Source of the DNA: a bacterium
GTDB taxonomy: Bacteria; Zhuqueibacterota; Zhuqueibacteria; Residuimicrobiales; Krinioviventaceae
Assembly (NCBI GenBank): GCA_963675755.2
Contig: CAXXMD010000003.1
Location: 3,424,001 to 3,488,000, forward strand
Length of the DNA: 64,000 nucleotides
Direction of reading: 5' to 3'
Part shown: positions 41,296-58,855 of the stretch, piece by piece
Layout of the letters: the number at the start of each line of letters is the position of its first letter
How positions within the stretch are numbered: the stretch's first letter is position 1
Made by a program: the position numbers and the translations under genes
The notes under the pieces: generated by a model
Databases searched by the model: none
Seen by the model: only the letters and a program-made list of their open reading frames with translations
What the model was told of the DNA's origin: nothing

Positions 41296-41302
41296 TATTG
41301 AT

Positions 41303-41494
41303 TGTACCATTCTTGATACACCCTTCCTAGTACTTGTTTTTATTGTACATCCATCTAATAATCCTTTGTAATGTTCAATTCTTGAATCAATTTTCGCAAT
41401 TTTCGTTAATTGTATCGAAGTTTTATGTTTTTAACTGTTTTATTATCATAGTGTTACCTTGATTGCTAATATTAATTATGGCCCTTTTTTTGTT
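41303..41494 (+). promoter_or_regulatory. Putative sigma54 promoter with paired enhancer sites (upstream of the receiver gene)
   Basis: TGT-N12-ACA at 41303 and TGT-N12-TCA at 41372; TGGCCCTTTTTTTGTT at 41479 (correct -24/-12 spacing, -12 variant). Confidence 0.55.
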
Positions 41495-41526
41495 TATAGT
41501 GTCATAATTCATCGTGGGAAAATATC

Positions 41527-41937: not shown

Positions 41938-41950
41938 ATAACTGTTGAAA

Positions 41951-42152
41951 TGTACGTTTTTTAGTACAACGACGTAATTACTTTAAAATCAATGCTTTAA
42001 GCGTTATTATGGTTTTAAATGTCTGATTTTTAGTACAATTGTAGATTATTTCGATAATTTTTACGAATTTTTAATTTTCTTGCTCTTTAATTTACAGGTA
42101 TTTAGCTAATGAAATTGGTGAAATGAAAATGTGTTATGGCATAATCATTGGA
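41951..42152 (+). promoter_or_regulatory. Putative sigma54 promoter with paired enhancer sites (upstream of csgE)
   Basis: TGT-N12-ACA at 41951 and 42020; TGGCATAATCATTGGA at 42137. Confidence 0.6.
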
Positions 42153-42203
42153 TAAGTTATAGATATAATTTCATTTATAAAATTAAATGCTTTTTGGGGT
42201 AAT

Positions 42204-42815
42204 GTGGGCATGGGACTAGTAGGTTTATTATATAACCTTTTTAATGGCAAGCGAAAGCTTGATAGGGTATTGGTTTGTATAATTGTAATGTTGATGACAA
42301 ATATTAATCTGATTTACTCCCAGGAACAGGATTCTGCATCTGTTGATACTGTCAAGCAAAACAAGACACGTGCAATATTGCAGAAATTGTTAAATCAGGC
42401 CACTCAGGAATCCATCCAGGATGTAATGGAAAAGCAAAAAGCCATTGCTAAAAAAGATACCATTAAAGACAGTTCTGATGAGGGCCTGGAAATTGATGGA
42501 TTGTTGATCAATGAAACCAAAACTAAAATTGGCCAGGACTTTTACGAATTCTTTTTCAATTTTTGGCAGGCACCTGACAATGCTAAAGATTATACTTTGT
42601 TTGTGTCTGAGAGACCTACAGGTAATAGCGGAAGCTGGATCTGGGTGAATGTAAATGAGACCACAGTATTTCAAAACCGATTAACCCCCAAAGCCGACCT
42701 GATTGAGGAAACTGCATCAAGTGCTGTATCAATTATCACAAATTATTTGATAAACCTGGATCAAAACCAACGACAGCTTGCCGGCGATGAGATGGCTGGG
42801 ACTGGAATTTTTTAA
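42204..42815 (+). CDS. csgE: Curli assembly component CsgE (N-terminally extended)
   Basis: EIDGLLINETKTKIGQDFYEFF, SERP, GSWIWV, C-terminal DEMAGTGIF; upstream of csgF. Confidence 0.88.
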   Translation: MGMGLVGLLYNLFNGKRKLDRVLVCIIVMLMTNINLIYSQEQDSASVDTVKQNKTRAILQKLLNQATQESIQDVMEKQKAIAKKDTIKDSSDEGLEIDGLLINETKTKIGQDFYEFFFNFWQAPDNAKDYTLFVSERPTGNSGSWIWVNVNETTVFQNRLTPKADLIEETASSAVSIITNYLINLDQNQRQLAGDEMAGTGIF

Positions 42816-42827
42816 GGAGACGGATGA

Positions 42828-43253
42828 ATGCCTCGGATAGTTAAATGTTTTATACTTTTTATTTTATTTGCAAGCAGTGCATTTGCTACTGAATTGGTTT
42901 TTACGTTTGTTAACCCTGCTTTTGGCGGTTATTATTATAACGCTACCTGGCTATTGAATTCAGCTCAATTACAAGATGATACCGGTGAATCTTCAAGTTC
43001 ATATACCAGCAGTTATTATTCAGCATCATCCCTTGAAGACTTTGAGGAAAGTATTAATCGTCAGATTCTGAGCCGTTTGTCCAGCAAGCTAGTTACACAG
43101 ATATTTGGGGAAGAAGATCTTGAACCAGGCCATTATGAAATTGGTGATTTTCAGATCGATGTAACCCCATCAGATAATGGAATACGCGTGGAAATAAATG
43201 ATCCGGTAAATGGCGGCGAAACAATTATAGAATTACCCTATTATGGTGACTGA
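42828..43253 (+). CDS. csgF: Curli assembly component CsgF
   Basis: Mature N-terminus TELVFTFVNPAFGG...NATWLLNSAQLQ; GETIIELP. Confidence 0.93.
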   Translation: MPRIVKCFILFILFASSAFATELVFTFVNPAFGGYYYNATWLLNSAQLQDDTGESSSSYTSSYYSASSLEDFEESINRQILSRLSSKLVTQIFGEEDLEPGHYEIGDFQIDVTPSDNGIRVEINDPVNGGETIIELPYYGD

Positions 43254-44685
43254 GAGTAGTGCAAAGATGAAAATGAGACCTGTAATTTATTCAATTTTTA
43301 TAATTATTATGATTTTAATGGGGTGTGCACCCTATTTACATCAAAGTAATCCTGTGCATACAACCCCGGCTACATTGGGGTATACCACAGCTATACATAG
43401 TGATTTACTTTCTTTACCTGAACCACGTGAAAAGATTGTTATTGCAGTATACAAATTTAGAGACCAGACCGGACAGTACAAAGCTTCGTCAAGTGGCATG
43501 ACATGGTCCACTGCTGTTACCCAGGGTGCTACATCTATGCTGCTAAAGGCTATGGAAGAATCAGGCTGGTTTATTGTCGTTGAACGTGAGGGTATTTCAA
43601 ACCTGCTGAATGAAAGAAAAATCATTCGCTCTACTCGTGAAAATTATACGGATGATCAAGGGCAGCAGTTACCCCCATTGCCTCCATTGCTCTATGCCGG
43701 AGTTACAATAGAGGGCGGAATTATTTCGTACGAAACAAACACTTTAACCGGTGGTTTTGGTGCACGTTATTTTGGTATTGGTGGGAATAACGAGTTCCGC
43801 AGTGATCAGGTAAATATTTATTTACGTTCTGTTGCTACAAAATCCGGTCGGATTTTAAATCAGGTAAATACTACAAAAACTATATTGTCTCAAGCTGTTG
43901 ATTTTAGTGTATATAAATTTGTACGAGAAAGCCGTTTATTAGAGATTGAAAGTGGTTATTCTACCAATGAACCGCCACAAATGTGTGTGCTGGAAGCAAT
44001 AGAGAAAGCAGTACTGGCCCTTGTTTGTGAAGGTATTGTATCAAAGAGCTGGGAGTTGAAAAATCCTGCAGATATTAAATCTCCGGTAATTCAAAGGTAT
44101 CTGGACGAAAAGCAAAGTACAACAAGATATACATTGCAGAATAGTATGCTTAACAGCAGATATGCAAAACCTCAATATGGTTATGATAAGGGATTAGGAC
44201 TTACCTTGAATGTGGGTAGTCATTTATACCAGGGCGATTACTCAAATCCCGAAATTCGCCCCATGGGTGATGCTTCTATTTTATGGGGCCTGCATCCCAA
44301 TGTCTTGTTGGAATTGAATGGTAGTATAGGGCGGATTGCAAATAAAGAAAACTTTTATACTGATTTGGGTTATTTGAATTTACAAAGCCGTTTTACATTT
44401 TGGTCAAATTCAAGATTTCGACCATTTGGAATTTTGGGCGCGGGAGCAATGAATTTTAGAGCTCGGGATAAAGCGGGAGTGTACATTCCACGTAAGAAAC
44501 GGTTTAAGGGCTGGGAGCCTGTTATGATTTCTGGTTTAGGCGTTGAATATTTTATCAATCCCAGTCTAAGCATGAATTTGAGTTTTATAAATCAATATAC
44601 CTTTACAGATTACCTGGATGGGGTTATCCATGGAAGTTATGATGACTATTTCTGGGGATTCAAGCTGGGGTTTAGTTATTACTAA
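43243..44685 (+). CDS. csgG: Curli secretion channel CsgG with C-terminal beta-barrel extension
   Basis: Lipobox LMGC; AVYKFRDQTGQYK, STAVTQGA, VEREGISNLLNERKIIR, EGGIISYE, NEP; about 190 extra residues ending FWGFKLGFSYY. Confidence 0.96.
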   Translation: MVTESSAKMKMRPVIYSIFIIIMILMGCAPYLHQSNPVHTTPATLGYTTAIHSDLLSLPEPREKIVIAVYKFRDQTGQYKASSSGMTWSTAVTQGATSMLLKAMEESGWFIVVEREGISNLLNERKIIRSTRENYTDDQGQQLPPLPPLLYAGVTIEGGIISYETNTLTGGFGARYFGIGGNNEFRSDQVNIYLRSVATKSGRILNQVNTTKTILSQAVDFSVYKFVRESRLLEIESGYSTNEPPQMCVLEAIEKAVLALVCEGIVSKSWELKNPADIKSPVIQRYLDEKQSTTRYTLQNSMLNSRYAKPQYGYDKGLGLTLNVGSHLYQGDYSNPEIRPMGDASILWGLHPNVLLELNGSIGRIANKENFYTDLGYLNLQSRFTFWSNSRFRPFGILGAGAMNFRARDKAGVYIPRKKRFKGWEPVMISGLGVEYFINPSLSMNLSFINQYTFTDYLDGVIHGSYDDYFWGFKLGFSYY

Positions 44686-44921
44686 GATCAGTTGAATACT
44701 GAAAGCTATCTGGTTGGGATCTGGTAAGGGCAGATAGATAAATGAACATCACGTAGATGTAAAAAAAACAAACGTATTTTGACAATTTCGTTGCATTAAC
44801 AGGCAATCATTAAATTATTATGTCTAAATGATTCTCTGTTGATACCAGTGGAAATGTATTGTTCATTTCCCAATGTAAACAATTGCTACATGAAAAATGC
44901 AATGCAAAGCGTAGTTGAGGA

Positions 44922-46241
44922 GTGAGGATGAGAATTTTCATGTCTGTTCTACTGGCACTGTTATTATTTTCAAGTGTTGGTATTGGCGCAGAAAACAGTG
45001 TAACTGCTAATGTAAATGGTAATTACAATCAATCAACAGTTACACAAGATGGATCAGCAAACACAGCTTCTGTTGACCAAAACAGTGCTGCAACCAAAGC
45101 AGCAGAAATGAATACTGTTGCTGTCACTCAAAAAAGTGATGATAATACCGCAACAGTTAATCAAGGTTCTGTATTAAAAACAAAGTATGTAAAGAATACG
45201 ACTGCAATTGTCACTCAGGCAGGCACAGGCGGAAACAGTGCAATTGTGAACCAGGGTACCGAAATCCATAATGGTTCAGTTGTTTCCAATGCAAAAGCGA
45301 ATATTAATCAAACTGGTGGATCCGGAAACAGTGCCGAGATAAATCAAAAATCCTGGAATTCGAATGCTTCTCCTACCAAATGGAGTAAACCGGATGATAA
45401 TACTGCAACTATTATTCAGGATGGATCTGGAAATACTGCAAGTTCAATATCTGACGTGACTCGTGGATCAACATTTATTCTTCAAGAGGGTAATGAAAAT
45501 ACAGCAACCCAAAAACAGGATGGAGAAAGAGATTTTACAGCCAGAATCACTCAGGAAGGTAACCATAATACTGCATCTCAGTTTCAACATGGTGACGCAA
45601 ATGCCAATGCGGAAATTGTTCAAAAGGGTATGGGGAATACTGCATCACAATGGCAGAAAAAAAATAATAATAGTTTGATCTATCAGGATGGTGTGGATAA
45701 TACCGCAGATGTTGAACAAAAATCTGCTGGTAATATCAAAGCCAATATTTATCAATATGGAAGTTATAATGGTTCTGCCGTTGATCCGGTTTTAATTGAA
45801 CAAAAAGGTGGATCAGGGAACTCTGCTGTGATTTATCAGGGTGATCCTACTTTGAATGTTTATAACAATAGCGCAATGATCTATCAGGATGGAACACTGA
45901 ATCTGGCAGCTATTCAACAATATAGTAATGAGAATGAAGTCATTTTATTTCAAAATGGGGTAGGGAATGAACTCCATGCATTACAAAAAGGAGGTGATGG
46001 GAACATTATCAATCTGACCCAGGATGGCGGTTCAACAGCATCTATTACTCAGGATGGCAGTGATAATGTCTTGAAAGGGGTAGGGGCAGGAAATACTATG
46101 GGACAATCATTAAATGGCAGCAGTCTTGATTTAACTCAAACAGGTACGGGAAACGTGTTAGAGTTGTTTCAGACCAATGGTGCTGCAGTCAAAGTTCTAC
46201 AAAATGGTATGACAAATAAAGTAACAATAATACAAAATTAA
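44922..46241 (+). CDS. Curlin-repeat amyloid subunit 1 (CsgA/CsgB family)
   Basis: Signal peptide followed by many N-x-A-x3-Q-x-G-x2-N repeats. Confidence 0.92.
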   Translation: MRMRIFMSVLLALLLFSSVGIGAENSVTANVNGNYNQSTVTQDGSANTASVDQNSAATKAAEMNTVAVTQKSDDNTATVNQGSVLKTKYVKNTTAIVTQAGTGGNSAIVNQGTEIHNGSVVSNAKANINQTGGSGNSAEINQKSWNSNASPTKWSKPDDNTATIIQDGSGNTASSISDVTRGSTFILQEGNENTATQKQDGERDFTARITQEGNHNTASQFQHGDANANAEIVQKGMGNTASQWQKKNNNSLIYQDGVDNTADVEQKSAGNIKANIYQYGSYNGSAVDPVLIEQKGGSGNSAVIYQGDPTLNVYNNSAMIYQDGTLNLAAIQQYSNENEVILFQNGVGNELHALQKGGDGNIINLTQDGGSTASITQDGSDNVLKGVGAGNTMGQSLNGSSLDLTQTGTGNVLELFQTNGAAVKVLQNGMTNKVTIIQN

Positions 46242-46253
46242 GGGAGTAGGGTA

Positions 46254-47393
46254 ATGAAAAGGTTGTTTGTTTTTTTGCTGGTGTTATGCATGTCAACATT
46301 TTTGATGGCTGCAAGTAATACCGCAACGATTAATCAATCAGGTAACACACACGAAGCTGATGTAACCCAATCCGGTTCTGATAATAGCGCAACAGTTATT
46401 CAGGGGAGTGGAAATGGAAATGAGCTTGGTTCTCCGGATGCAGGTGATCCAGGAATTGGCGCATATGGTGAAAGTGATGACCTCTCTAAAGCAAAGGGAT
46501 TGGTGCAGAGTGGTGATAATAATGTTGCTTATATTTCTCAATTAGGCAATAATAATGCAATACAGCAATTTCGTCAATTACGAGGTGTTTTAAATTCAGT
46601 CCAACAAATTGGTAATGCAAATGATATTTCTGTATTACAAGCCGGTGGCAACAATGTAGTAGGTCAGGCTAGTTCAGAATACAACAGTCTTGAACAAGTA
46701 GGAAATGGAAATGATGCAACAATTGGACAATCTGGAAATAATAACAAACTTGCTGTATTTTACCAGTTGAATGATGACAATTATGCAAACATTAATCAGG
46801 TTGGTGATAATAATTATATTGCTAGTGCTACGCAAAAGCCACTCGGAGGCTCTCCTGCAAATAATTCATTGACCATTCTTCAGGATGGAAATAATAACCG
46901 TATCGATAACGCAGGTGAAGAAGGAATTGATATTTTGGGTTCAATCACACAAGATGGTGATCAGAACCGTGCAAGTATGCAATTGAGTCGCACTGCTGCG
47001 TTTGGTGATATTGATCAGATTGGTGATGACAACCGTGCAACTATCACCATTAATAAAAGTTATATCGGCAATTCAAATAGTGGTGATATTGATCAACTTG
47101 GTAATGGTAATGTTGCAACTCAGGTTATCAGCCAAGTGGATCCCGGTATTACTTCTTCAAACAATACGATGACAACATTTCAATCTGGTGATGGAAATGA
47201 TGCTGATATATTAGTATTAGGTTCTGACAACCAGGCAACTATAAACCAAACCGGTATTGGTGGCCATATTGCTGATATTACACAGAGTGGTGATTTGAAT
47301 ATTGCATCTATCAGTTCAGATGGTTCTGGTCATGTTGGTTCAATTGTTCAAACAGGAAATCAAAACAATGCATTGATAACACAGCAACCATAA
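46254..47393 (+). CDS. Curlin-repeat amyloid subunit 2
   Basis: Signal peptide; repeats such as NTATINQSGNT, NDATIGQSGNN. Confidence 0.92.
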   Translation: MKRLFVFLLVLCMSTFLMAASNTATINQSGNTHEADVTQSGSDNSATVIQGSGNGNELGSPDAGDPGIGAYGESDDLSKAKGLVQSGDNNVAYISQLGNNNAIQQFRQLRGVLNSVQQIGNANDISVLQAGGNNVVGQASSEYNSLEQVGNGNDATIGQSGNNNKLAVFYQLNDDNYANINQVGDNNYIASATQKPLGGSPANNSLTILQDGNNNRIDNAGEEGIDILGSITQDGDQNRASMQLSRTAAFGDIDQIGDDNRATITINKSYIGNSNSGDIDQLGNGNVATQVISQVDPGITSSNNTMTTFQSGDGNDADILVLGSDNQATINQTGIGGHIADITQSGDLNIASISSDGSGHVGSIVQTGNQNNALITQQP

Positions 47394-47485
47394 TATAATT
47401 TACCCAATAATTGTATGTGTTTGGGTGATTAAAACAAATGACTTGTTAGCTATAAATATCGAGAAACCTTTAAAGGAAATAAATT

Positions 47486-48595
47486 ATGAAAAATTTGTTT
47501 GTAGTTTTAATGTTACTGGCAATGACAGGTTTTGTTATGGCTGGAAGTGATGCAACCGTCACACAGGTTGGTGACAATAATGATGCTCAAGTTCAACAGA
47601 CGGGCACAAATCATACTGCTGAAGTAACCCAATACGGTAAAAACATTGCTGATGTTGAGCAAGTTGGGTCTACGAATGAAGCATACATCACGCAGGGTCA
47701 ATCTGGCTCTCCGGTAACAAATTTTGGTACAAATGTTTCCTGGAAATATGGTGCTTTTATTAAACAGGATGGTTCTGACAATGACGCAGCTCAAACAGTT
47801 AGAACAAATGATAATGGAATCAGCATTTATCAAAAAGGTGATCGAAATGACGCCGTTCAGGATGTCTATTCATATATCCATAAATCAACTGATTGGAATG
47901 AAATGGGTTTAGATATTGATCAAATAGGCAATGATAATTATTCCCAACAAAAAACAATCAAACAGTTTGGTAGTTATGGTATTCAAAAAATGGTTTCTAA
48001 ACAAGAAGGAAACATGAATAGTGCTTTTCAATACAGCATTGGTGGCAAAGTATCAGAAATGCGTGTTGTGCAAGTAGGCAACAATAATACAGGTGCAACT
48101 GCTGCAGATGTTGCTTCTACAACTATTAATCCCCTTTCATTACCTTGGGGAACAGAAAAACACCCAAGCCATCTGGATGGTATAGATCCTGTTTCAAATA
48201 TTACAGATGGTGTATATACACAATATCAAAATGGTATGTATAGCACTGCAAAGACCATTGTAACTGGTTCCTATAATAAAACAACTCAGGCTCAGGAATG
48301 GACTGATTATTTTGGTGCTGCTGGTTCAAATACTGAAACACTTGACATTTTTGGAGATACCAATGCTTCCATTCAGGGACAATTTGGTGAATACAATGAA
48401 TCCTATGTAAGTGTTTCTGGCTCATACAACCAGATTGCAACCAGTCAAAAAGGTGACAGTAATTTTGCCGATGTGGATTTACTGGGTGCCAGTGATAATA
48501 ATGTTGTGGGTATCGACCAAACTGGTGATTCAAATAGCGCTATTGTTAGTGTAAACGGTGCAAATAACATGGCAACTGTTATTCAACAACCGTAG
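47486..48595 (+). CDS. Curlin-repeat amyloid subunit 3
   Basis: Signal peptide; ATVTQVGDNNDAQVQQTG repeats. Confidence 0.92.
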   Translation: MKNLFVVLMLLAMTGFVMAGSDATVTQVGDNNDAQVQQTGTNHTAEVTQYGKNIADVEQVGSTNEAYITQGQSGSPVTNFGTNVSWKYGAFIKQDGSDNDAAQTVRTNDNGISIYQKGDRNDAVQDVYSYIHKSTDWNEMGLDIDQIGNDNYSQQKTIKQFGSYGIQKMVSKQEGNMNSAFQYSIGGKVSEMRVVQVGNNNTGATAADVASTTINPLSLPWGTEKHPSHLDGIDPVSNITDGVYTQYQNGMYSTAKTIVTGSYNKTTQAQEWTDYFGAAGSNTETLDIFGDTNASIQGQFGEYNESYVSVSGSYNQIATSQKGDSNFADVDLLGASDNNVVGIDQTGDSNSAIVSVNGANNMATVIQQP

Positions 48596-48741
48596 TGATT
48601 TTTTATCCATGGGAGCTTAGTGACTCCCCATGGATAATGTTGTGTTCTTTATAAATTTTTGTGTTTGTGGGTAGTCAAATTAATTGACTAATAGGGTATT
48701 AAAAAACAATTTAATCATAACCTTGAGAAAGGGGTAAGGAA

Positions 48742-51183
48742 ATGAAAAAAGTAGTAATTTTTTTGATGGTTCTTTTAATGGCTGGTTTTGGTTTTGCAGC
48801 AAATACCAGTACAACAACTCAAAGCGGTGATAACAATACTGCAGACGTAGATCAAACAGGAAGTAATACAGCTACAACAACACAAACAGGTGACAATGGT
48901 ACAATAGATATTGACCAGAATGGTGAAAACAGTGCAACAGTAACTCAGACTGAAACTGCAACAACAACACCTGTGGGTAGTCAGGCAGCAACAGTAGACC
49001 AGAATGGCTTGCGCAATACGGTTTCTATTGAGCAGACAGAGACAGGTGATGGTGGTCATACTTTTAACAGTGCTACAGCAGTTCAAGATGGAAATGATAA
49101 TACCATTACTCAATCAACCTATGCTCCGGGATATAATAGCGGTCAAAAGGTAGACGCATATCAGGAAGGTGATGATAATACTGCTACACAGACAATTACA
49201 GCAGGTTATACCAATTCTTTTGATGTTGATCAGATTGGTGATAATAATACTTCTACTCAAACTGGATCAGCAAACCATAGTCATGGAAACGTTTATACTA
49301 ACGGTAATAATAACTCTGCTACCCAGACACTTTCAGGCAGTAATCATGGATATTCTGGTGGTATTAATATTGATCAATATGGCGATGATAATGAAGCAGA
49401 ACAGACTTTTAGTGGCAGCGGATTGGGCCATGTTCAAAAAGGTGATATTTACCAGGACGGTAATTTTAATGATGCCCTCCAGACCAGTAATGGCCCGGAT
49501 AATGTTGCCAATACCTATCAGTTCGGTAATGAAAACGTAGCTGAAACATATATTGATGGTAGTGGAAATGATTCGGACATCGATCAAGTTGGCGATTTAA
49601 ATAATGCTGACATTAATCAACAAGGTGACGAAAATACTGGAAAAATCATTCAAGTTGGTGAAGCAAATGATTCTGATATTGATCAAACCGGTAATAACAA
49701 TACTGCATCTGTAGCATTGAGTGAACCAGCTTATACTTCTTCGTATAATACTACAGATATTGATCAAACCGGTAATAGAAATACTGCAACGCTTGGTACT
49801 TTGATGGGAGATAGAAATGTTACCACAATGAACCAGGAAGGTGATGACAATTATACTGAATATAATATTGGCTATGGTAACGATAATACCGCAACAATGA
49901 CTGTGAATGGTGATCGTAACAGAACCCGTATTGGTATATCAGCAGATTGGGGTTTAAAATCTAGTAATAACTCAATTGATATTACCAAAACTGGCGATGT
50001 TAACTATGTGTCAGGTGCAATTAAAGGTAACTATAATGATGTATACATCTATCAATATGGAAGTAATAACCGTGTTGGAACTTCCTGGTATACTTCTGAT
50101 GGTGTTAATATCTTGGGTGATCAAAATTACTCTTATGCGGCACAATTAGGCGATGCAAACGGTGCTTTAGTTGGACAAGTTGGTACAGGGAATTATGGGA
50201 TCACTGAACAGTATGGTAATTCCAACTCTGCACAAGTTAATCAAGATGGTTCGAGTAACTATGGACGTGCACGTCAGTTAAGTGGAAGTTCTAGCAATGA
50301 TGCTTCTGTAAGTCAAAACGGAACAAGCAATTCAGGATTTGTAGTACAAGGAATGATTGAGAATTATTATTCAGATCCAAAATATCAGCCAACAACTGAA
50401 ATGCAATCTTATAATAGCGAAGCTTCAGTTTCGCAAGTTGGTAGTGTAAATAAAGCGTATGCTTATCAAGTCGGTGATGCTAATAAAGGTTCAGTATCTC
50501 AAAATGGTAGTAATAACACCGCTTATTCATACCAAGGATGGTCATTCGGGTTCTGGGGAGAAACTCCCACTACTTCAGCCTTGGAAGCTACAAATAGTAA
50601 TGTAACTGTAACTCAAAACAGTAGTAATAATTATGGTGCTGTATGGCAGTATGGTGGAGATAATAACGCTGCATCTATTGATCAAAATACTGGTAATGGC
50701 AACAATGCTTCAATCTCACAAGGTTTTATTTATGTAGATGCAGATTATAATTTTCCACATCCGGTTTACAACACTAATAACAATAATGCTTCTATTAGTC
50801 AGGCGGGCGCAAGCAATACTGGCAAAGTGTTCCAGCTTGGTAATAGCAACCAATTTACATTAGCGCAAAATGGAGATGGTAATAAAGTTGGTTTAATTAG
50901 TGGTACAAGTGATTTGGGTCTAGTGCGTAATGCTTATTTTGATCAATCTGGAAATGGAAATATTTTCACTGGTACCCAGAATAATGGTGCTACTTTGGAT
51001 AATACCAGTTTTCAGCTTGGTGACGACAATGAAATTGATCTGATCCAGGGATCCGGAGATGTTGCTTTAATTCAACAAGATGGTGATTTAAATACTGCAA
51101 ACAATTATCAATATGGTGGTGCTAATTCATCCAGTATTATACAAACAGGTGATGGAAATACTTCAACAGTAACACAAAATTAA
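48742..51183 (+). CDS. Curlin-repeat amyloid subunit 4 (813 aa)
   Basis: Signal peptide; roughly 30 Q-x-G-x-x-N repeats. Confidence 0.93.
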   Translation: MKKVVIFLMVLLMAGFGFAANTSTTTQSGDNNTADVDQTGSNTATTTQTGDNGTIDIDQNGENSATVTQTETATTTPVGSQAATVDQNGLRNTVSIEQTETGDGGHTFNSATAVQDGNDNTITQSTYAPGYNSGQKVDAYQEGDDNTATQTITAGYTNSFDVDQIGDNNTSTQTGSANHSHGNVYTNGNNNSATQTLSGSNHGYSGGINIDQYGDDNEAEQTFSGSGLGHVQKGDIYQDGNFNDALQTSNGPDNVANTYQFGNENVAETYIDGSGNDSDIDQVGDLNNADINQQGDENTGKIIQVGEANDSDIDQTGNNNTASVALSEPAYTSSYNTTDIDQTGNRNTATLGTLMGDRNVTTMNQEGDDNYTEYNIGYGNDNTATMTVNGDRNRTRIGISADWGLKSSNNSIDITKTGDVNYVSGAIKGNYNDVYIYQYGSNNRVGTSWYTSDGVNILGDQNYSYAAQLGDANGALVGQVGTGNYGITEQYGNSNSAQVNQDGSSNYGRARQLSGSSSNDASVSQNGTSNSGFVVQGMIENYYSDPKYQPTTEMQSYNSEASVSQVGSVNKAYAYQVGDANKGSVSQNGSNNTAYSYQGWSFGFWGETPTTSALEATNSNVTVTQNSSNNYGAVWQYGGDNNAASIDQNTGNGNNASISQGFIYVDADYNFPHPVYNTNNNNASISQAGASNTGKVFQLGNSNQFTLAQNGDGNKVGLISGTSDLGLVRNAYFDQSGNGNIFTGTQNNGATLDNTSFQLGDDNEIDLIQGSGDVALIQQDGDLNTANNYQYGGANSSSIIQTGDGNTSTVTQN

Positions 51184-51305
51184 TTTATATGCCCGGGAAC
51201 GCTTTATTGTCGTCCCCGGGCACAAAGATCATTAGGGTCTTGATTTGGGATGGGCAGTGAAAAAGAGTAACTGTCAAAAACAATTATATTTGGGAGAGGG
51301 GTAAC

Positions 51306-52394
51306 ATGAAAAAAACTTTGATTTGTTTGCTAGTTTTGGCATTTGCAGGATTTTTATCAGCGGCTAATAATGCTGCTGTCACTACAACTGGATCAAATAA
51401 TAATGCAACTATTGATCAGGTTGGAAGTAACGGTGCAACTGCCACCCAGACAGGTGATTATAATCTGGTTGATGTTGATCAAACAGGTGATAATACTGCA
51501 TCAATTTCACAAGCAAGTATTAATGGTGGAACTGCCGGAAAAGGCAATCAAGCTGGTGTTATGCAAAATGGTAGCGGTAATGAAACTTTGATAAATCAGG
51601 ATAGAAGTGGCGGTCAGCAAAGCAAAGTTTCCTTAGCAACCAGTGAACAAACAGGTGATAATAATTTAGCAACAATTAACCAAACTGGAAATTATCAAGG
51701 TTCAAACAAATCTTCAGTTACACAACATGGTATAACTGGTGGTTTGGGTAACACTGCAGAAGTGAATCAAATGGGTTATGGTAATACCTGGGATATTAAA
51801 CAAGCTGGTGACCAAAATTATGCTTTACAACAGGCTAATAGTGTTGTTCATAGTGGAACTACAAATAAAATTGAGCAAGATGGATTAAGTAATGAAGCAT
51901 ATCAGTATACCAGTGGAAGCGATGCTATGAAAGCAACAATAGCTCAGGTTACAGGTGTAAATGATAATTATGCTATTCAGACTCAGGCAGGGTTAAAAGC
52001 AGAAGCTGTTATTAACCAGTTTTCAAATTCAAATACAGCAATTCAGGAACAATATCATGGTTCATACAAACATGATGGTGTATATGCCCGTTCACATTTA
52101 GCAGTTATTACTCAAACTGGTGGTGAAAACAACTATGCAAAACAATATCAGGATGAAACTGTTGGTGATAGTTTTGCAAACAGCCGAAATGAATCAACTA
52201 TTTACCAGAATGGTGGAGACAATACTGCAACTGTATCGCAATATGATGGTTTGAGTGTGGGAAATGTTACACAAACTGGCAATTTAAATAATGCCACTAT
52301 TGAACAGAGCGGTTTAATTAATAATGCAGATATCACTCAAACCGGTAATGGTAATACTGCGACAGTTACTCAGGCTGATGGTGTTGTGATATAA
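51306..52394 (+). CDS. Curlin-repeat amyloid subunit 5
   Basis: Signal peptide; NNATIDQVGS...NTATVTQ repeats. Confidence 0.92.
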   Translation: MKKTLICLLVLAFAGFLSAANNAAVTTTGSNNNATIDQVGSNGATATQTGDYNLVDVDQTGDNTASISQASINGGTAGKGNQAGVMQNGSGNETLINQDRSGGQQSKVSLATSEQTGDNNLATINQTGNYQGSNKSSVTQHGITGGLGNTAEVNQMGYGNTWDIKQAGDQNYALQQANSVVHSGTTNKIEQDGLSNEAYQYTSGSDAMKATIAQVTGVNDNYAIQTQAGLKAEAVINQFSNSNTAIQEQYHGSYKHDGVYARSHLAVITQTGGENNYAKQYQDETVGDSFANSRNESTIYQNGGDNTATVSQYDGLSVGNVTQTGNLNNATIEQSGLINNADITQTGNGNTATVTQADGVVI

Positions 52395-52484
52395 TTTCTT
52401 GAGATTATTAATAATTTCTTTCTGATATTTGAAAAGAATTCAGATAAAGTGTTGAAAAATTAACCTTTAAAAAGGGGTAAGAGG

Positions 52485-53861
52485 ATGAAAAAAATTGCAG
52501 TTTTATTGATGGTATTAGCAATGACAAGTTTTGTTATTGCAGCAAACAATGCAAATGTTACGTCAGAAGGTGATGGAAACAATGCTTCAGTAACTCAGAC
52601 AGGTTCTAATGTTGCCACAGTTGATCAGGTTGGAAATAATAATGATGTTGAAAATCTGTGGCAAAATGGAAATAATAATTCAGCATCGGCAACTCAAACC
52701 GGAAATGAAAATACTGGCCATTTTCGTCAAGGTGGTGGCGGTGTTTATGCTACATGGGGTATTCCTGATGCATATGACGATAATACTTTAACCAGTAATC
52801 AAACAGGTAATCAGAATTATGCTAAAGCGTCAGAATTTGGTAATAGCAATGCAGTTTCAATACAACAGACTGGTGACAATAATATTTCTCATAACTGGTT
52901 GTGGGGTCACACAAATACTTCAACTATAACTCAGGGCCCCTTGGCTGGAAGTACTAACGGTAATAATAACTATTCAGAAGTTGCTATTAATGGTCATACA
53001 AGCGTGGCAACAGTTACCCAGGTTGGTAATGAGAATACTGGATTAATTGGCCAAGGTTGGGCTGGGCGAAATTGGAGTGATAATACTGCTACTATTTATC
53101 AAGAAGGAAACCGCAATAAAGTTTCAAATGAAGTATGGCCAATGTCTGAATTACCAGGATATACATCTGACTTGCAAGGTATGGGAATTCAGCAATATGG
53201 TGGTTCTTCTAATTATGGTTCTGCCTCCCAAGTTGGTGATGATAATGTTACCTGGATTTATCAATATGGAAACAGTAACACCGCAACAAATAATCAAACC
53301 GGAAATAATAACAATGCAACTGTAAACCAGAATGGAAATGGTGATCTTAGTACCATCAATCAAAGCACATGGGGTACTGGTCATTCTGCTGTTGTAAATC
53401 AAATAAATGGTGACGCTAATGTAAGTGATATTTTACAAGACCAGCGAGGAGCTTCCGTTACTGTAGATCAAAATGGAAACAGTAATACTAGTGGAATTAA
53501 ACAATCCGGTCCTAATACTGCAGATATTGATCAGGTAGGTAATAATAATGTTTTAGGTCAATATAGTAATCTTGCTTCAAAAGCATTTCAGAAAAATGGA
53601 ACTTCTTTTTCTGATGATATGAATACACTTATAGTAGACCAACTGGGTGATGGAAACAAAGCAGGCGTGTGGCAAGAACATCATGCTGATGCTTTAATTG
53701 AACAAGGTGGAAATGGAAATGATGCCCGTGTATGGCAATCTGGTGCTGCTGGTGGAGATTTTAACAATGCAACTATTACTCAAACAGGTGATTTGAATGT
53801 AGGAAATATTCATCAAATGGGTGATGGTAATACTGCAGCTATATCACAAAATAGTTTGTAA
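52485..53861 (+). CDS. Curlin-repeat amyloid subunit 6
   Basis: Signal peptide; NNASVTQTGSNVATVDQVGNNN repeats. Confidence 0.92.
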   Translation: MKKIAVLLMVLAMTSFVIAANNANVTSEGDGNNASVTQTGSNVATVDQVGNNNDVENLWQNGNNNSASATQTGNENTGHFRQGGGGVYATWGIPDAYDDNTLTSNQTGNQNYAKASEFGNSNAVSIQQTGDNNISHNWLWGHTNTSTITQGPLAGSTNGNNNYSEVAINGHTSVATVTQVGNENTGLIGQGWAGRNWSDNTATIYQEGNRNKVSNEVWPMSELPGYTSDLQGMGIQQYGGSSNYGSASQVGDDNVTWIYQYGNSNTATNNQTGNNNNATVNQNGNGDLSTINQSTWGTGHSAVVNQINGDANVSDILQDQRGASVTVDQNGNSNTSGIKQSGPNTADIDQVGNNNVLGQYSNLASKAFQKNGTSFSDDMNTLIVDQLGDGNKAGVWQEHHADALIEQGGNGNDARVWQSGAAGGDFNNATITQTGDLNVGNIHQMGDGNTAAISQNSL

Positions 53862-53928
53862 AATTTAATACCCGTGAGAATATTTTAATCTTACGGGTAT
53901 TAAATTGCTATTATTGAAGGGAATTATA

Positions 53929-54909
53929 ATGAAAAAAGGTCTTATTCAACTTGTGTTGTTGATAATGGTCGGTTTTTTATTCGCAGCAGGAAATTCAACA
54001 GATATTGATCAGACAAATAATTTTAATCAAGCAAATGTAACCCAAACCGGAAATGATAATGTAGCTGATGTAGATCAAATTAGCACTGCTACAAGCAGTA
54101 GTGAGAGTAACATTGCAGAAATAACTCAAGCCAGTAATAATAATGATTTTATTATTGACCAAACCGGCAAGTCTAATGTTGCAATTATGAGTAATGAGAT
54201 CAGAGATGGTGCAGTCTCCAAAGTCTATCAGAATGGTGTTGATAACCGAGCTGAAGCAGAACTGATATCAAGTGGTGTCCTGGCAGGTAAAAGTTTTACA
54301 TCATTTCAAGAACAGATTGGAAATCATAATGTGACTTCCAGAATTAAAATGGATGGAATTAACAGTAGTACATATAATTTTCAATTTGGTGACTATAACC
54401 ACTCACATACTTCAATTGCAGGTGACAATAACTGGACCTTGGTAACCCAAGGTGTAAATTCTGCTGCTGCAAATCACAATTATGTTTATAGTGAGACCGA
54501 TGGTGACAATAATGATGTGATTGTTGATCAGGTAGGTGATTATAACAATACTATTATTGTGCAGGAATACCAATCTAATACAAGTATTGTTGATCTGGAT
54601 CAAACAAATGGTTCGAATGCAACAATTAAGCAGAATTCTCTCAATATGGACAAGAATTATCAAAATGTTGTAAAATTGAACCAAACCAACAGTTCCTTTG
54701 CTACAATTAACCAAGGTGGTAGCAATGGCGGTGGTTATAATATTGTTAAAGGATTAGGCACTGCGGAATTTGGACAATCGTTGAATGGTAGTATCTTGGA
54801 CATTGATCAAATTGGTAATCATAATGTTGTAAGCTTGTACCAGGATGATGGTATTGCTACTGTTAGCCAAACTGGTAACAGTAATGATGTAATTATACAT
54901 CAATATTGA
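53929..54909 (+). CDS. Curlin-repeat amyloid subunit 7
   Basis: Probable ATG at 53929 (MKKGLIQ); NQANVTQTGNDNVADVDQ repeats. Confidence 0.9.
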   Translation: MKKGLIQLVLLIMVGFLFAAGNSTDIDQTNNFNQANVTQTGNDNVADVDQISTATSSSESNIAEITQASNNNDFIIDQTGKSNVAIMSNEIRDGAVSKVYQNGVDNRAEAELISSGVLAGKSFTSFQEQIGNHNVTSRIKMDGINSSTYNFQFGDYNHSHTSIAGDNNWTLVTQGVNSAAANHNYVYSETDGDNNDVIVDQVGDYNNTIIVQEYQSNTSIVDLDQTNGSNATIKQNSLNMDKNYQNVVKLNQTNSSFATINQGGSNGGGYNIVKGLGTAEFGQSLNGSILDIDQIGNHNVVSLYQDDGIATVSQTGNSNDVIIHQY

Positions 54910-54994
54910 TTGCAAATTATTAAGATTTCTTTTTTAAGATTGTTTGCCATATGAAAGTGGATTATTCATGGTGAGCAAAACCGTAAGGGTAAAA

Positions 54995-55918
54995 ATGAAA
55001 TTACTAAAATTTATAATTGTTCTAATTTTTACAGTAACGTTGCATCTTTATGCACAATATGATGTTAAAGTTGAACAGGATGGAAATAATAATGAGATTC
55101 TTGTTAATCAATCCGGATTGTTCAACAAGATCAATGTTTTACAACGAACTGACAATTCCCGTTCCGTAATAAACCAGGACGGAACGGGTAATGTCATTGC
55201 TCAAATCAATGAAAATTCTGATTCGGGTGCAATAACCAAACAAAAAGTCGTTCAAGATGGTGATTTCAATTATGCATCCCAGGTATCGTTAAAGGGAACA
55301 GGCTGGGGAGAACAGAGAATTCACCAAACTGGCAGTTATAATAATGCAACTCAGCTGCGTTTGGGCGATGTTTCTTCTGCTATTATTACTCAAGCTGGAA
55401 ATAATAACAATGCATCTGAAAACTTATGGATCCATGCTGAAAATGCAACTGCCAAAATAATTCAAGATGGCGATTATAATTATTCAAGAATTGATATTGA
55501 TGGATCTCAAGCTCTTGCAGATTATAATGCTGCATTAATTGAAACACATGGTAACAGCAATGGTTGTGAATGTTCTCCTGTGAGGATTAATCTTGTAGGT
55601 GATAATCATTCAGCCAAGATATTGCAAGGAACAAAAGGCGATATTGATAACAATAATGCTGTAATTAGATTGGTTGGAATTTATAGTAATGCCGATACAG
55701 GAAATAAAGCTACTATTTCTCAGGAATATGGTAATGGCAATGAAGCACAAATTACTTCAATTGGTATGCAAAATGGTAGTAATACAGAAAACGGATTGCT
55801 GATTCAACAACAAGGATCAAATAATTATGGCGATTTGCAGGTTTATGGTATGGGGTTGGGAGGTAGTATAATACAGATAGGTGATAATATGTCCGTACGA
55901 GTTATTCGTACAAATTAA
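54995..55918 (+). CDS. Curlin-repeat subunit 8, candidate CsgB-like nucleator
   Basis: Probable ATG at 54995; curlin repeats; basic atypical last repeat IIQIGDNMSVRVIRTN; internal CEC motif. Confidence 0.85.
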   Translation: MKLLKFIIVLIFTVTLHLYAQYDVKVEQDGNNNEILVNQSGLFNKINVLQRTDNSRSVINQDGTGNVIAQINENSDSGAITKQKVVQDGDFNYASQVSLKGTGWGEQRIHQTGSYNNATQLRLGDVSSAIITQAGNNNNASENLWIHAENATAKIIQDGDYNYSRIDIDGSQALADYNAALIETHGNSNGCECSPVRINLVGDNHSAKILQGTKGDIDNNNAVIRLVGIYSNADTGNKATISQEYGNGNEAQITSIGMQNGSNTENGLLIQQQGSNNYGDLQVYGMGLGGSIIQIGDNMSVRVIRTN

Positions 55919-56053
55919 AATAGAATAATTCCAGCATATTTCTCAATATTATTGCCTGATGGTTTAATTCATGTCATTCACACACTATTATCTTGCCAAA
56001 ATAAATGAGTATGACAGAGTTTATGAACAGGTTTTACTAACTCTAATGAATAG

Positions 56054-57145
56054 ATGAGAAATTCAATTGGTAAATACATATATTATTTCATGCTTTTATC
56101 TTTTCCCTTTTCTACAACAACTGCGCAGGAAATTTTAACTGTAATTCCCAATACAATACAATTGGATCTGGTACCCGGCTATTTAGAAGTGGTTGATATT
56201 AAAGTAATGAATACATTTGAAAATGATCTGCAAATTCAAGTTGAATATGATACGACATGGGTAGATATTTCTCCATTCGAATTCAGTCTTTTACCTGGAA
56301 ATATGACTCAATTGCTTGTCTTTTTTTTCATTCCAACAGGTCAAACACCGGTTTCGAATGGTTCAATTGTTTTTAAAAATAAAAACAATCACCAGATTTT
56401 AAATAAAATCGATCTAATTCTAGACTCAACATTAGCCAAATCTCCATATACTGATGAACGAGATACACAGTACACGAATAATGATAATTATATTGATCCG
56501 AAAATACTAGAGCTGCAACAACAAATACAAAAAGACCAACTGATGATCTCTGACCTTCAAAGTCAATTAAACAAAAAAGATTTAGAAATTGCCAAGCTAT
56601 TAGATGCAAATGGATCAAACTCGGATGAATTCGTACTTGCTCCTTTTCCCAAGATTGCTGAAAATCAATCATTGGGTTTTGATGCGCTCAATTCATTATA
56701 CAAAGTATTGCTTCGGGAAATGAATTCTGATCTAAAAAATAATAAAGCAGTACTTGACTTTTCCCAAAATAAAATATATTTTTCTATCTCAGGAGAGATC
56801 GCATTTATTTCTGGTGGAAAGTATTTGAGATTGGAAGGGGAAAGGGTGTTGAATCGATTTTCAAGCGTGTTGAAAAATTTTTCATATAAAGATTTCAAGA
56901 TTATGGTTGTTGGGCATACGGATTCGGTGCAATATAAAGATGGTATGCAGCAAGAAACTTTTGGTAATTGGGAACTATCTGCCCTTAGATCTGTCAAAGT
57001 TATCAAGCATTTACAAAAAATGGCTGATTATCCTGGTACCAATTTGCTTGCATCAAGCCAGGCATCATATTCACCTATTGCCCCCAATAATACAAAAACT
57101 GGAAGAGTCGCAAATCGAAGAATTGAAATTATTATTTCCTATTAA
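56054..57145 (+). CDS. Exported Ig-like + coiled-coil + MotB/OmpA-like peptidoglycan-binding protein
   Basis: Signal peptide; VVGHTDS, NWELSALRS, PIAPNNT..GRVANRRIEI. Confidence 0.88.
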   Translation: MRNSIGKYIYYFMLLSFPFSTTTAQEILTVIPNTIQLDLVPGYLEVVDIKVMNTFENDLQIQVEYDTTWVDISPFEFSLLPGNMTQLLVFFFIPTGQTPVSNGSIVFKNKNNHQILNKIDLILDSTLAKSPYTDERDTQYTNNDNYIDPKILELQQQIQKDQLMISDLQSQLNKKDLEIAKLLDANGSNSDEFVLAPFPKIAENQSLGFDALNSLYKVLLREMNSDLKNNKAVLDFSQNKIYFSISGEIAFISGGKYLRLEGERVLNRFSSVLKNFSYKDFKIMVVGHTDSVQYKDGMQQETFGNWELSALRSVKVIKHLQKMADYPGTNLLASSQASYSPIAPNNTKTGRVANRRIEIIISY

Positions 57146-57176
57146 ATATATTTTGACTGTCAAACTCTGCCATTAA

Positions 57177-58679
57177 ATGAGGTACGAAATGAAACTGAAT
57201 GCAATGAAATGGATAATGCCTGTTGTGATAGCTCTGCTGGTTTTGATTAGTTGTACAGAAGATCCAATTGAACCTGAAACTACCGGAAGTATTAGCGGTC
57301 AGGTAATACATTCTGAAACATTAGAACCAATTTCTGGTGCAAACATTACGACAACACCTGCTACTATAGCAGTCAATACAGACAATTCCGGTAACTATAT
57401 AATTGAAGGAGTTGAAGAAGGAACAGTTACTGTTAAAGCTACGAAAACCGGATTTAAATCTTCTTCAATTAGTATACTGGTTGAACCCAGTAAGAATACA
57501 ATAGCCAATATACAGATGTCTGAATCCACACAGACCAATGATGCCCCCAATTCCCCATATAGCCCTGTACCTGCAAATGGAGCAAGTGATCAGGCCGCAA
57601 GTATTACTTTGACGTGGCGTGCAAGTGATCCCAATTCTGGCGATACATTGTATTACGATGTATATCTGGGTAATTCAGGCCCCATGCATTTAATTTCAGA
57701 AAATCAATCAGATACCACCCTGGGATTAACAGCTTTGAGTTATGGACACACCTATCATTGGCAGATTGTAGCCAAAGATCAGGAAGGTTTGGAAACCAAC
57801 AGCCCGGCATGGAGTTTTACTACTGCTGATTTTCCCAGGTATCCCATTGTTTTTGCATCCAATGTAGATGGTAACTATAATATCTTTACCGGTTCTAGTG
57901 ATGGAGCTGATTCAATTCGACTGACTATTGATCCGGGCAGAGATTGGTATCCGCGTTTTAGCCCGAATCGTGAGAAAATAGCATTTACTTCGAATCGTAA
58001 TGTTGAATCGCAACTGTTTATTATGAATTATGATGGAAGCGATCTTGAGCAAATATCGAGTATACCTGTTGTAGGATATAATAATTATGGAACAGGATTT
58101 TGTTGGGACCCGACAGGGCATAAATTATTATATGCAAATTATGAAAAATTATACAGGATTGATTCGGATGGAGATCAGTTAACACAGATTGCTACAGCAC
58201 CCGAAAATCGTAATTTTTACGAAATAGATTGGTCACCTGTTGGTGGAAAAATAGCGGCAATTACTGTGGGAAGTAATGTTTATGATACTGAGTTATATAT
58301 AATGAATGAAAATGGATCCAATATGACCTTGTTGCTTGATAATGCATCCGGCCGTATAGGACATCCGTCTTTTTCACCCTCCGGTGAAGAAATTGCCTAT
58401 TACTATGATGTTTCGGGATACGAAGCCGGTACCAACCGGATGCTGGACGCCCGAATCCATATTATAGATGTTGCATTGACCGATACTACGGATATTTCTC
58501 ATGGTAAACCGATCGGTACCAATGATATTGACCCTGTATGGACACCAGACGGTGCGCATATTATTTTCACCAATGTGCCCAACGACAATTCCGGCAATCC
58601 CTCGGTATGGATCATGAATACCAACGGCGAATCACGCGAGAAATTATTTGATAACGCGCAAATGCCGGACTGGAGATAA
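57177..58679 (+). CDS. Lipoprotein: carboxypeptidase-like regulatory domain + FN3 + TolB/PD40 beta-propeller
   Basis: Lipobox LISC; TGSISGQV..EPISGANI; TYHWQIVAKD; PRFSPNREKIAFTS and PVWTPDG repeats. Confidence 0.9.
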   Translation: MRYEMKLNAMKWIMPVVIALLVLISCTEDPIEPETTGSISGQVIHSETLEPISGANITTTPATIAVNTDNSGNYIIEGVEEGTVTVKATKTGFKSSSISILVEPSKNTIANIQMSESTQTNDAPNSPYSPVPANGASDQAASITLTWRASDPNSGDTLYYDVYLGNSGPMHLISENQSDTTLGLTALSYGHTYHWQIVAKDQEGLETNSPAWSFTTADFPRYPIVFASNVDGNYNIFTGSSDGADSIRLTIDPGRDWYPRFSPNREKIAFTSNRNVESQLFIMNYDGSDLEQISSIPVVGYNNYGTGFCWDPTGHKLLYANYEKLYRIDSDGDQLTQIATAPENRNFYEIDWSPVGGKIAAITVGSNVYDTELYIMNENGSNMTLLLDNASGRIGHPSFSPSGEEIAYYYDVSGYEAGTNRMLDARIHIIDVALTDTTDISHGKPIGTNDIDPVWTPDGAHIIFTNVPNDNSGNPSVWIMNTNGESREKLFDNAQMPDWR

Positions 58680-58726
58680 GGGGCCGTATTATCAGCCATC
58701 TGGAAGATTTGATAGTTATTATCTTC

Positions 58727-58753
58727 AAAGCCCCTTAAACTGTAAGGGGCTTT
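58727..58753 (+). terminator. Terminator closing the curli operon
   Basis: AAAGCCCCTTA-aactg-TAAGGGGCTTT followed by GTGTTTT. Confidence 0.8.
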
Positions 58754-58855
58754 GTGTTTTAGCAATATAATCAATCCCGGAAATGTAAAAGAAATTCCTG
58801 TTGTGCTATTCCTGTTTATCTATTATCTTGTAATTCACACAACATTATATAAAGG

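Follow-up and report, generated by a model that had tools for sequence, protein, structure and literature searches.

Organization of the locus

The 64,000-nucleotide stretch of contig CAXXMD010000003.1 analysed here (the window, to which positions refer unless another contig or locus is named) contains, at 42204-58679 of the forward strand, a cluster of thirteen co-directional open reading frames (ORFs) with short gaps, which is interpreted below as a curli (type VIII secretion) locus. The genome holding it (G000; 6.48 Mb, 98% complete) belongs to the phylum Calditrichota of the Fibrobacteres-Chlorobi-Bacteroidetes (FCB) group, and the first-pass annotation of this DNA was right in placing it outside the proteobacteria, near the FCB lineages. 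The gene order is csgE, csgF, csgG, eight curlin genes (cur1 to cur8; 44922-55918, about 11 kb), a gene for an OmpA-domain protein and a gene for a PD40 lipoprotein, followed by a terminator-like hairpin. Comparisons were made with a genome of the same genus (G001), one of a different genus in the same order (G014), one of the same class (G139) and a further Calditrichia genome (G121).

The secretion genes are recognized by Pfam matches, which for CsgE, CsgF, CsgG, the curlin repeat (Curlin_rpt, in all eight curlins) and OmpA lie above the curated cut-offs. The csgE gene (42204..42815, +) is a 203-residue ORF (PF10627, 88.9 bits, E 3e-25) with 89% identity to its counterpart in G001 and 46% to that in G014; its CsgE domain occupies residues 97-196 and is preceded by a leader and a charged linker. 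It is followed by csgF (42828..43253, +; PF10614, 132.1 bits, 128 of 132 profile positions) and by csgG (43243..44685, +; PF03783, 206.7 bits), which codes for the lipoprotein channel with a fused C-terminal barrel.

The curlin genes, all on the forward strand, differ in length and in their nearest relatives. The first, cur1 (44922..46241; 439 residues, Curlin_rpt 100 bits), is 95% identical to a G001 curlin with a ratio of non-synonymous to synonymous substitution (dN/dS) of 0.058, while cur2 (46254..47393; 379 residues, 145 bits) has its closest relative in G014, at 36% identity. The degenerate cur3 (47486..48595; 369 residues, 100.4 bits) shares 47% identity with a G014 curlin and at most 30% with any curlin of G001. 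The largest, cur4 (48742..51183; 813 residues), matches the repeat profile in 10 stretches (187.1 bits), carries 27 strict N-x-psi-x-psi-x-Q motifs and is 50% identical to G001 curlins. Then follow cur5 (51306..52394; 362 residues, 99.8 bits), a beta-solenoid in its structural model, and cur6 (52485..53861; 458 residues, 116 bits), the final gene of a variable block, with at most 33% identity to any curlin of G001 or G014. The array ends with cur7 (53905..54909; 42.5 bits; G001 identity 86%, dN/dS 0.11) and the terminal cur8 (54944..55918; 47.3 bits; orthologues in G001 at 89% and in G014 at 45%). The true starts of these two genes are more likely the internal ATG codons at 53929 and 54995, where Shine-Dalgarno-like GGG/GGA runs are found, giving proteins of about 326 and 307 residues.

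Downstream lie the gene for an exported OmpA-domain, peptidoglycan-binding protein (56054..57145, +; PF00691, 41.5 bits as compared to a cut-off of 27.2, residues 251-355) and the gene for the PD40 lipoprotein (57177..58679, +), in which Pfam recognizes CarboxypepD_reg, a sub-threshold fn3 match and PD40 beta-propeller repeats. The hairpin at 58726..58754 (+) has a 12-bp stem with 6 GC pairs, a T-rich tail and a fold z of -3.3, and ranks first among the terminator-like sites of the region. No ORF of the cluster is broken, each has a leader and a GGG/GGA-rich ribosome site of its own, and the GC content stays at 0.36-0.38 throughout. The first-pass annotation had described this one-strand cluster of csgE, csgF, csgG, eight divergent signal-peptide-bearing curlins and a closing terminator; all thirteen genes lie where it placed them, a leader can be read in each curlin, and the hairpin with its T-run occupies 58726-58754. 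Its size range of about 310-813 residues is about right, with cur7 and cur8 probably somewhat shorter owing to their internal starts.

The curlin subunits

The Curlin_rpt cut-off of 20.7 bits is surpassed by 8/8 of the curlin ORFs, and, of the genome's 23 Curlin_rpt matches, 22 sit inside the array. Every curlin begins with a basic, then hydrophobic, then small-residue leader, as judged by eye and not by a signal-peptide program. The proteins are rich in Asn, Gln, Gly, Ser and Thr and contain 4-27 strict N-x-psi-x-psi-x-Q motifs each; the spacing of these motifs peaks at 10-12 and at 21-24 residues, which are the canonical half-rung and rung of a curlin. The most irregular members are cur3, with 7 strict motifs and one inter-motif gap of 205 residues, and cur8, with 4 motifs. 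A lone Curlin_rpt match (25.9 bits) lies distant from the locus in a 259-residue frame (G000:C3:1845517-1845582, minus strand), and a similar match is present in G001.

The AlphaFold2 model of cur5, built with 35 homologues, has a mean predicted local distance difference test score (pLDDT) of 80.4, a predicted TM-score (pTM) of 0.78 and 28 short strands. When Foldseek's own 56 candidates for this model were re-scored with VIA-align, the Pontibacter korlensis CsgA (8c50_A) was placed first with Z 29.0 over 303 residues, the next chain, a generic beta-helix, reaching 16.9. At the sequence level, phmmer matched cur5 to 8c50 with E 1.2e-17 and to E. coli CsgA with 7e-5. The predicted fold of the subunit is thus, for cur5, the two-sheet beta-solenoid of the solved CsgA, as the earlier annotation had expected of AlphaFold; this outcome concerns one of the eight curlins.

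The last curlin of the array differs from the rest in its C-terminal end, SIIQIGDNMSVRVIRTN, which matches the C-terminal motif of short terminal curlins in FCB loci. The motif Q-x-G-x(1-3)-M-x-[VIL]-x-[VIL] ends 29 of 152 curlin-like ORFs as compared to 14 of 1722 other ORFs in 80 related loci, and 27 of these 29 curlin ORFs are 130-215 residues long, mostly in the final curlin position ahead of the PD40 gene. In G001 the orthologue of cur8 can be aligned over some 177 codons, a length typical of these short terminal curlins. Owing to the shared motif, the terminal position and the size of the orthologue, cur8 is proposed, tentatively, as a candidate CsgB-like nucleator or anchor; the NCBIfam models of CsgB and CsgA both match it weakly and do not discriminate between the two. 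Positions 55277-55703 of cur8, about 430 bases, have no counterpart in G001, whose gene is about 130 codons shorter, and on the alignment this difference means that about six rungs of the candidate nucleator were gained or lost in one of the lineages.

CsgG and the accessory proteins

E. coli CsgG aligns to residues 18-286 only of the 480-residue CsgG (E 2.6e-64), the channel part spanning residues ~18-287. The AlphaFold2 model of the latter, built with 57 homologues, consists of a CsgG-like N-domain, a helical linker and eight long strands at about 318-480, with pLDDT of about 90. In Foldseek searches the N-domain matches CsgG 4uv2 (TMt 0.83, E 8e-22) and the C-domain matches the barrels of OmpA, NspA, Ail, OmpW and OprF (TMt 0.66-0.79, E down to 1.5e-9). 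The protein carries an LMGC lipobox with a nearly invariant Cys28, and 79 of the 80 related loci match it through residue 478-480, the exception ending at a contig edge. As modelled, the protein is a lipoprotein channel fused to a C-terminal eight-stranded OmpA-like outer-membrane barrel.

CsgG relatives also occur outside the locus. The genome has 11 CsgG-family matches, mostly in frames of 290-350 residues without curlin neighbours, and since such matches are present in 34 of 41 related genomes, CsgG-like lipoproteins are widespread independently of curli. About 32 kb 3' of the intact csgG, at G000:C3:3500810-3501280 (12825-13274 of locus L013), lies a decayed csgG fragment with 84% DNA and 89% protein identity to residues 74-223 and three in-frame stops, immediately followed by a 127-nt csgF match at 70%. 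These fragments are probably the remnant of a second curli machinery.

The PD40 lipoprotein is composed of CarboxypepD_reg, fn3-like and PD40 beta-propeller domains. A homologue is found 3' of the curlins in 57 of the 61 related loci having at least 6 kb of downstream sequence; it is a near-constant and not an incidental member of FCB-type curli loci. Its lipobox Cys26 is invariant among 38 homologues and is followed by a conserved x-E-D, presumably similar to the signal by which Bacteroidota export surface lipoproteins; if so, the propeller would lie at the cell surface. The OmpA-domain protein has a beta-rich N-terminal domain, a coiled-coil-like middle and a C-terminal OmpA domain. Orthologues are present in the curli loci of G001, G014 and G121, with a cut one in locus L026, but in only 3 of the 80 related loci. 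A complex prediction of PD40 residues 215-500 with OmpA-domain residues 225-363, a TolB-Pal-like pairing run without controls, gave no support (score 0.00, mark 0.32) and counts neither for nor against such a pairing.

The two genes had earlier been labelled a TolB lipoprotein and a MotB/OmpA-like gene. The propeller and the OmpA domain of these labels stand, but the family names do not, as the lipoprotein reaches 85 bits with TIGR02800 as compared to a cut-off of 343.15, and the OmpA-domain protein 79 bits with the MotB family as compared to 259. The TolB (TIGR02800) cut-off is reached by no frame in the genome.

Distribution and array size

The distribution of the system in this lineage is patchy. 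Within the order, 3 of 41 genomes (G000, G001 and G014) have Curlin_rpt matches, and at E <= 1e-40 a CsgG of the present type is present in 6 of the phylum's 167 genomes searched, in one of the six as a fragment at the edge of a contig. When each GTDB species was represented by one genome, a scan returned 502 stretches related to this CsgG, and the neighbours of the best 80 of the 502 were examined; these belong to Pontibacter, Hymenobacter, Marinifilum, Labilibaculum, Fulvivirga, Saprospiraceae, Ignavibacteria and Calditrichia. As a working class, an FCB-type curli locus is here one with a barrel-fused CsgG and a CarboxypepD_reg/PD40 lipoprotein gene after the curlins, and the G000 locus has both.

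The order csgEFG, five to eight curlins, OmpA-domain gene and PD40 gene recurs in G001, G014 and G121. The number of curlins per locus is 8 in G000, 6 in G001, 7 in G014, 7 in G139 (locus L056), 6 in L026 and 5, perhaps 6, in G121. Among 61 related arrays closed by a PD40 gene, 0, 1, 2, 3, 4, 6 and 7 curlins were counted in 2, 15, 29, 8, 4, 2 and 1 loci, respectively. Eight is the highest number among the 81 loci counted and two the commonest (29/61); eight curlins are therefore many yet not unprecedented, within the known tail.

CsgC and CsgH have no match anywhere in the genome, in agreement with the earlier statement that the cluster holds no csgC-, csgH- or csgD-like gene; a nearby LuxR-type regulator stays below the CsgD cut-off. 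The novelty implied by the first-pass annotation was overstated. According to the accessible parts of the two surveys, Bacteroidetes curli without csgC and csgD, and up to six csgA/B homologues in Spirosoma and Rhodopseudomonas, were already described (Dueholm 2012, PMC3521004), and copies per genome fall off towards 14 with a maximum of 30, at 4-62 repeats per protein (Sleutel 2023, PMC10192328). The latter paper, in the same parts, places long CsgA homologues with many repeats in a single continuum of solenoids that form fibres. A Bacteroidota curlin fibre subunit, the CsgA of Pontibacter korlensis, has been solved (PDB 8C50). The count per csgG locus, which the earlier annotation had singled out, is thus at the top of the present sample, but multi-copy curlins as such are on record in both papers. 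The literature searched, in the accessible text and exclusive of the supplements of PMC3521004 and PMC10192328, which may hold operon maps and per-genome counts for FCB phyla, describes neither the fused barrel nor the PD40 partner nor curli of Calditrichota, and the same accessible text makes no mention of an upstream sigma-54 activator, a -24/-12-like motif or a replacement of inner curlins.

The variable inner block

Alignment of the locus to G001 revealed a sharply bounded region of divergence. DNA identity is 88.4% over 37975-46321, through cur1 and the leader of cur2, 87.2% over 53924-55276, covering cur7 and the start of cur8, and 88.8% over 55704-58679. The stretch between the first two, 46322-53923, is unalignable save for two patches of 65-68%; it starts about 67 nt into cur2 and holds five genes in 7.6 kb as compared to three in 4.0 kb in G001. 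It has no base-composition anomaly. The flanking proteins are 87-98% identical to those of G001 with dN/dS of 0.015-0.20, the values for csgE, csgF, csgG, cur1, cur7, cur8 and the OmpA-domain and PD40 genes being 0.03-0.20, while cur2-cur6 share at most 50% identity with any G001 curlin. For cur4 and its best G001 match dS is 1.44 and dN/dS 0.29, as compared to a dS of 0.25-0.74 in the flanking genes. The C-termini tie cur2, cur3, cur4 and cur8 to genes of G014.

That the array had recently undergone tandem duplication or gene conversion was considered and rejected, as its direct repeats are merely 60-81% identical over 27-64 nt and represent the curlin repeat itself. The conserved flanks, the high dS of cur4 and the greater closeness of cur3 to G014 point to replacement of the interior, or else to old paralogues having been retained differentially, and not to simple fast drift. 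On these comparisons, and with lower confidence, the five genes cur2-cur6 thus appear to have been replaced relative to G001, beyond mere mutation, after the two sister species separated.

Stable RNA hairpins are predicted directly after the stops of cur3 (48603-48637), cur4 (51190-51222) and cur6 (53862-53905). The last has an 18-bp stem with z -5.6, none of 200 shuffles folding equally well, and lies at the right edge of the variable block. These hairpins are possible intra-operon attenuators or mRNA stabilizers, and it may be speculated that they tune the stoichiometry of the subunits.

Candidate regulatory elements and neighbouring genes

Three genes on the forward strand lie directly upstream of csgE. 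They code for a candidate regulator, the PAS/HisKA/HATPase sensor histidine kinase (38790..39902; HATPase_c 96 bits, HisKA, PAS_9), which is syntenic in G001 at 96.5% identity, a sigma-54-dependent NtrC-type response regulator (39919..41295; Sigma54_activat 228 bits, Response_reg, HTH_8), which may activate the locus, and, just 5' of csgE, a small receiver-like protein (41527..41937; Response_reg 25 bits, under the cut-off of 30.2; 95% identity in G001). All three are retained in G001 with 95-98% identity and synteny. A homologue of the sigma-54 activator (more than 380 residues, E<1e-60) accompanies 33 of the 65 related loci having at least 6 kb of upstream sequence, and in L020 and L022, both labelled Calditrichia, it stands between csgG and csgE; small receiver-like ORFs occupy the same position in several Pontibacter loci.

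A candidate sigma-54 -24/-12 element, TGGCAT-N5-TTGG, is located at 42137..42152 (+), where the sequence reads TGGCATAATCATTGG, 52 nt before the csgE ORF, and is identical in G001. The region upstream of csgE in G014, otherwise unalignable, contains TGGCATAGTGCTTGA (TGGCAT-N5-TTGA). Of 73 regions upstream of csgE, 15 contain a relaxed version, TGG[CT]A[CT]-N5-TTGN, as compared to 60 of 3563 background windows (1.7%), and rpoN is found in the genome. From these motifs and neighbours, sigma-54 and the adjacent kinase/NtrC-type pair likely control the transcription of the locus, an assignment held with lower confidence. A scan for sigma-70 promoters in turn gave 86 sites as compared to 81 expected and was uninformative.

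On the other side of the cluster, 1.2 kb downstream, a NarL/LuxR regulator (59928-60581) was considered as a stand-in for CsgD and rejected, having 55 bits as compared to a cut-off of 250, NarL as its best match and no synteny in G001. The gene 3' of it (60837-61547, +) belongs to the bacterial archaeo-eukaryotic release-factor family 3 (PF18845, 86 bits).

Interpretation and alternative explanations

Taken together, the locus is best read as a curli system of FCB-group form, in which predicted beta-solenoid subunits would be exported through Sec and then CsgE/CsgG/CsgF and polymerize outside the cell by nucleation, and we give this reading a probability of about 0.8. The mechanism is modelled on the E. 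coli system and on the homologies found in the locus. The eight curlins would traverse the inner membrane via Sec by means of their N-terminal leaders and leave the periplasm unfolded through the CsgG lipoprotein channel, with CsgE gating its periplasmic side and CsgF capping it outside. Outside, they would fold into stacked strand-arc-strand rungs of 22-23 residues and polymerize end to end into amyloid fibres. The eight subunits could yield heteropolymers or several different fibres, as the first-pass annotation had proposed. With lower confidence, cur1 and cur7 may be conserved structural subunits, and cur2-cur6 exchangeable major subunits which set the surface properties of the fibre.

Several results weigh against parts of this reading. 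Plain Foldseek on the cur5 model returned nothing at E <= 0.001 (best 0.15; 8c50_A second, 0.42), so that the solenoid match is qualified by its dependence on VIA-align re-scoring, and the structure prediction of curlins covers cur5, one of the eight. The nucleator role of cur8 is drawn from a C-terminal motif and a gene position alone. With regard to control, the sigma-54 consensus has 26 matches across the window as compared to 34 expected, which is no enrichment, the motif before csgE is without the canonical C at -12 (TTGG in G000, TTGA in most relatives), and the 15 motif-bearing loci are not independent, being related to one another. The curlin counts of the other loci come from a custom motif and phmmer rule, not a curated model, applied to 80 of the 502 loci.

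The curlins might be exported by the CsgG machine and yet form no long amyloid fibres, serving chiefly as beta-solenoid adhesins (monomers or short oligomers) or as a surface coat. Long solenoids can be stable monomers, and the present proteins are long (307-813 residues) and partly degenerate (cur3, cur8); the remaining top neighbours of the cur5 model are, moreover, adhesin and tailspike beta-helices with Z 14-17. The closest structural neighbour by a wide margin (8c50_A, Z 29.0), however, is a curlin whose structure was solved as that of a fibre subunit, each protein has regular repeats at either end which could allow head-to-tail stacking, CsgF and the candidate nucleator are kept, and long CsgA homologues are placed in the fibre-forming continuum in the accessible part of Sleutel 2023 (PMC10192328), so that an existence without fibres appears improbable. 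Somewhat less improbable, though still unlikely, is that only a few genes matter (cur1, cur7, cur8 and possibly a single major subunit), with redundant inner paralogues in neutral turnover and a count of eight that is functionally meaningless. Copy number does vary (8, 6, 7, 5 and 7 in G000, G001, G014, G121 and G139, respectively), neither G001 nor G014 has a clear orthologue of cur5 or cur6 (best identity 33%), tandem duplicates are present in G001 (367 and 368 residues) and G014 (300 and 306 residues), and the decayed csgG fragment elsewhere in the genome indicates that curli genes do get lost. Redundancy sits poorly with eight intact frames, each having a leader and a ribosome-binding-like site, and with the absence of any intra-array DNA repeat above ~80% identity, by which no member of the array is a recent unpurged duplicate. 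Constraint is also indicated by the dN/dS of 0.29 between cur4 and its nearest G001 relative, and the paralogue types cur2, cur3, cur4 and cur8 are recognizable by their C-termini in another genus.

The divergence of the inner block could also have arisen in place by fast diversifying selection, for instance under phage or grazer pressure, instead of by replacement or differential retention. The block codes for surface-exposed fibre material and has sharp boundaries at gene 5' ends, and the dN/dS of cur4 is the highest of the measured pairs. Synonymous divergence is, however, also far above that of the flanks (1.44 as compared to 0.25-0.74), which selection at the protein level does not account for. 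The difference in gene number, five in 7.6 kb and three in 4.0 kb, and the nearness of cur3 to a curlin of another genus (47%) rather than to those of the sister species (30%) further argue against selection in place, which we consider to have little likelihood.

A more far-reaching proposal is that such loci constitute a structurally distinct FCB class of type VIII secretion system. In it, a CsgG nonamer would be ringed by nine fused OmpA-like barrels, an obligatory PD40 lipoprotein would replace CsgC/CsgH, sigma-54 would replace CsgD, and the Calditrichia array would be a cassette in which conserved end curlins frame inner genes swapped between species. This proposal is tentative, and we hold it to be rather doubtful; if true, the outcome would be a variable coat of amyloid, comparable to pilin, flagellin or O-antigen loci with their variable middle.

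Comparison with known systems and significance

The locus shares with the curli of E. coli and Salmonella the homologous CsgE, CsgF and CsgG, the CsgG N-domain having about 42% identity in a structural alignment, as well as subunits with Sec leaders built of curlin repeats, and assembly by nucleation-precipitation is presumed in both. It differs in being a single co-directional cluster instead of two divergent operons, and in having eight subunits of 307-813 residues instead of two of about 150. It has no CsgC and no CsgD but an additional PD40 lipoprotein and OmpA-domain protein, likely sigma-54 control, and a 190-residue extension of CsgG with an eight-stranded barrel. The segment ASNF of E. 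coli CsgG is aligned to GMTW in the present protein, at pore-loop positions which we take to form the constriction.

The loci of Pontibacter, Hymenobacter, Marinifilum, Labilibaculum, Ignavibacteria and Calditrichia share the order csgE-csgF-csgG(+barrel)-curlins-PD40 lipoprotein, and those of Bacteroidetes likewise have no csgC or csgD and long multi-repeat curlins, the cur5 model superposing best on 8c50_A. Bacteroidetes-type loci, however, mostly hold one to three curlins, and the OmpA-domain gene is confined to Calditrichia-type loci. In the HfaA/HfaB/HfaD system of Caulobacter, HfaB, a member of the CsgG family, exports small amyloid-like anchor proteins. The present CsgG reaches 42 bits with holdfast_HfaB as compared to an equivalog cut-off of 300, and the presence of CsgE, CsgF and true curlin repeats identifies the locus as curli and not as a holdfast anchor. 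The adjacency of a PD40 propeller gene and an OmpA-domain gene recalls Tol-Pal, but the propeller has other N-terminal domains, no tolQRA is adjacent, and the pairing is found in a minority of FCB curli loci.

Nothing is overturned by these observations, as multi-copy curlin loci and non-proteobacterial curli are already known in the literature, and their novelty is moderate. Nearly all mechanistic knowledge of curli comes, however, from Enterobacteria, and the ~500 related loci in Bacteroidota, Ignavibacteria and Calditrichota suggest that a large share of bacteria make curli with a modified channel, other helpers and without the known periplasmic amyloid inhibitor. This raises the questions of how toxic periplasmic aggregation is avoided with up to eight long amyloid subunits, and of what the barrel on CsgG and the propeller lipoprotein do. 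An array of eight divergent subunits, with conserved ends around a swapped interior, would provide a natural test set for the rules of cross-seeding and co-polymerization, which may be of relevance to biofilm ecology and to curli-based engineered materials.

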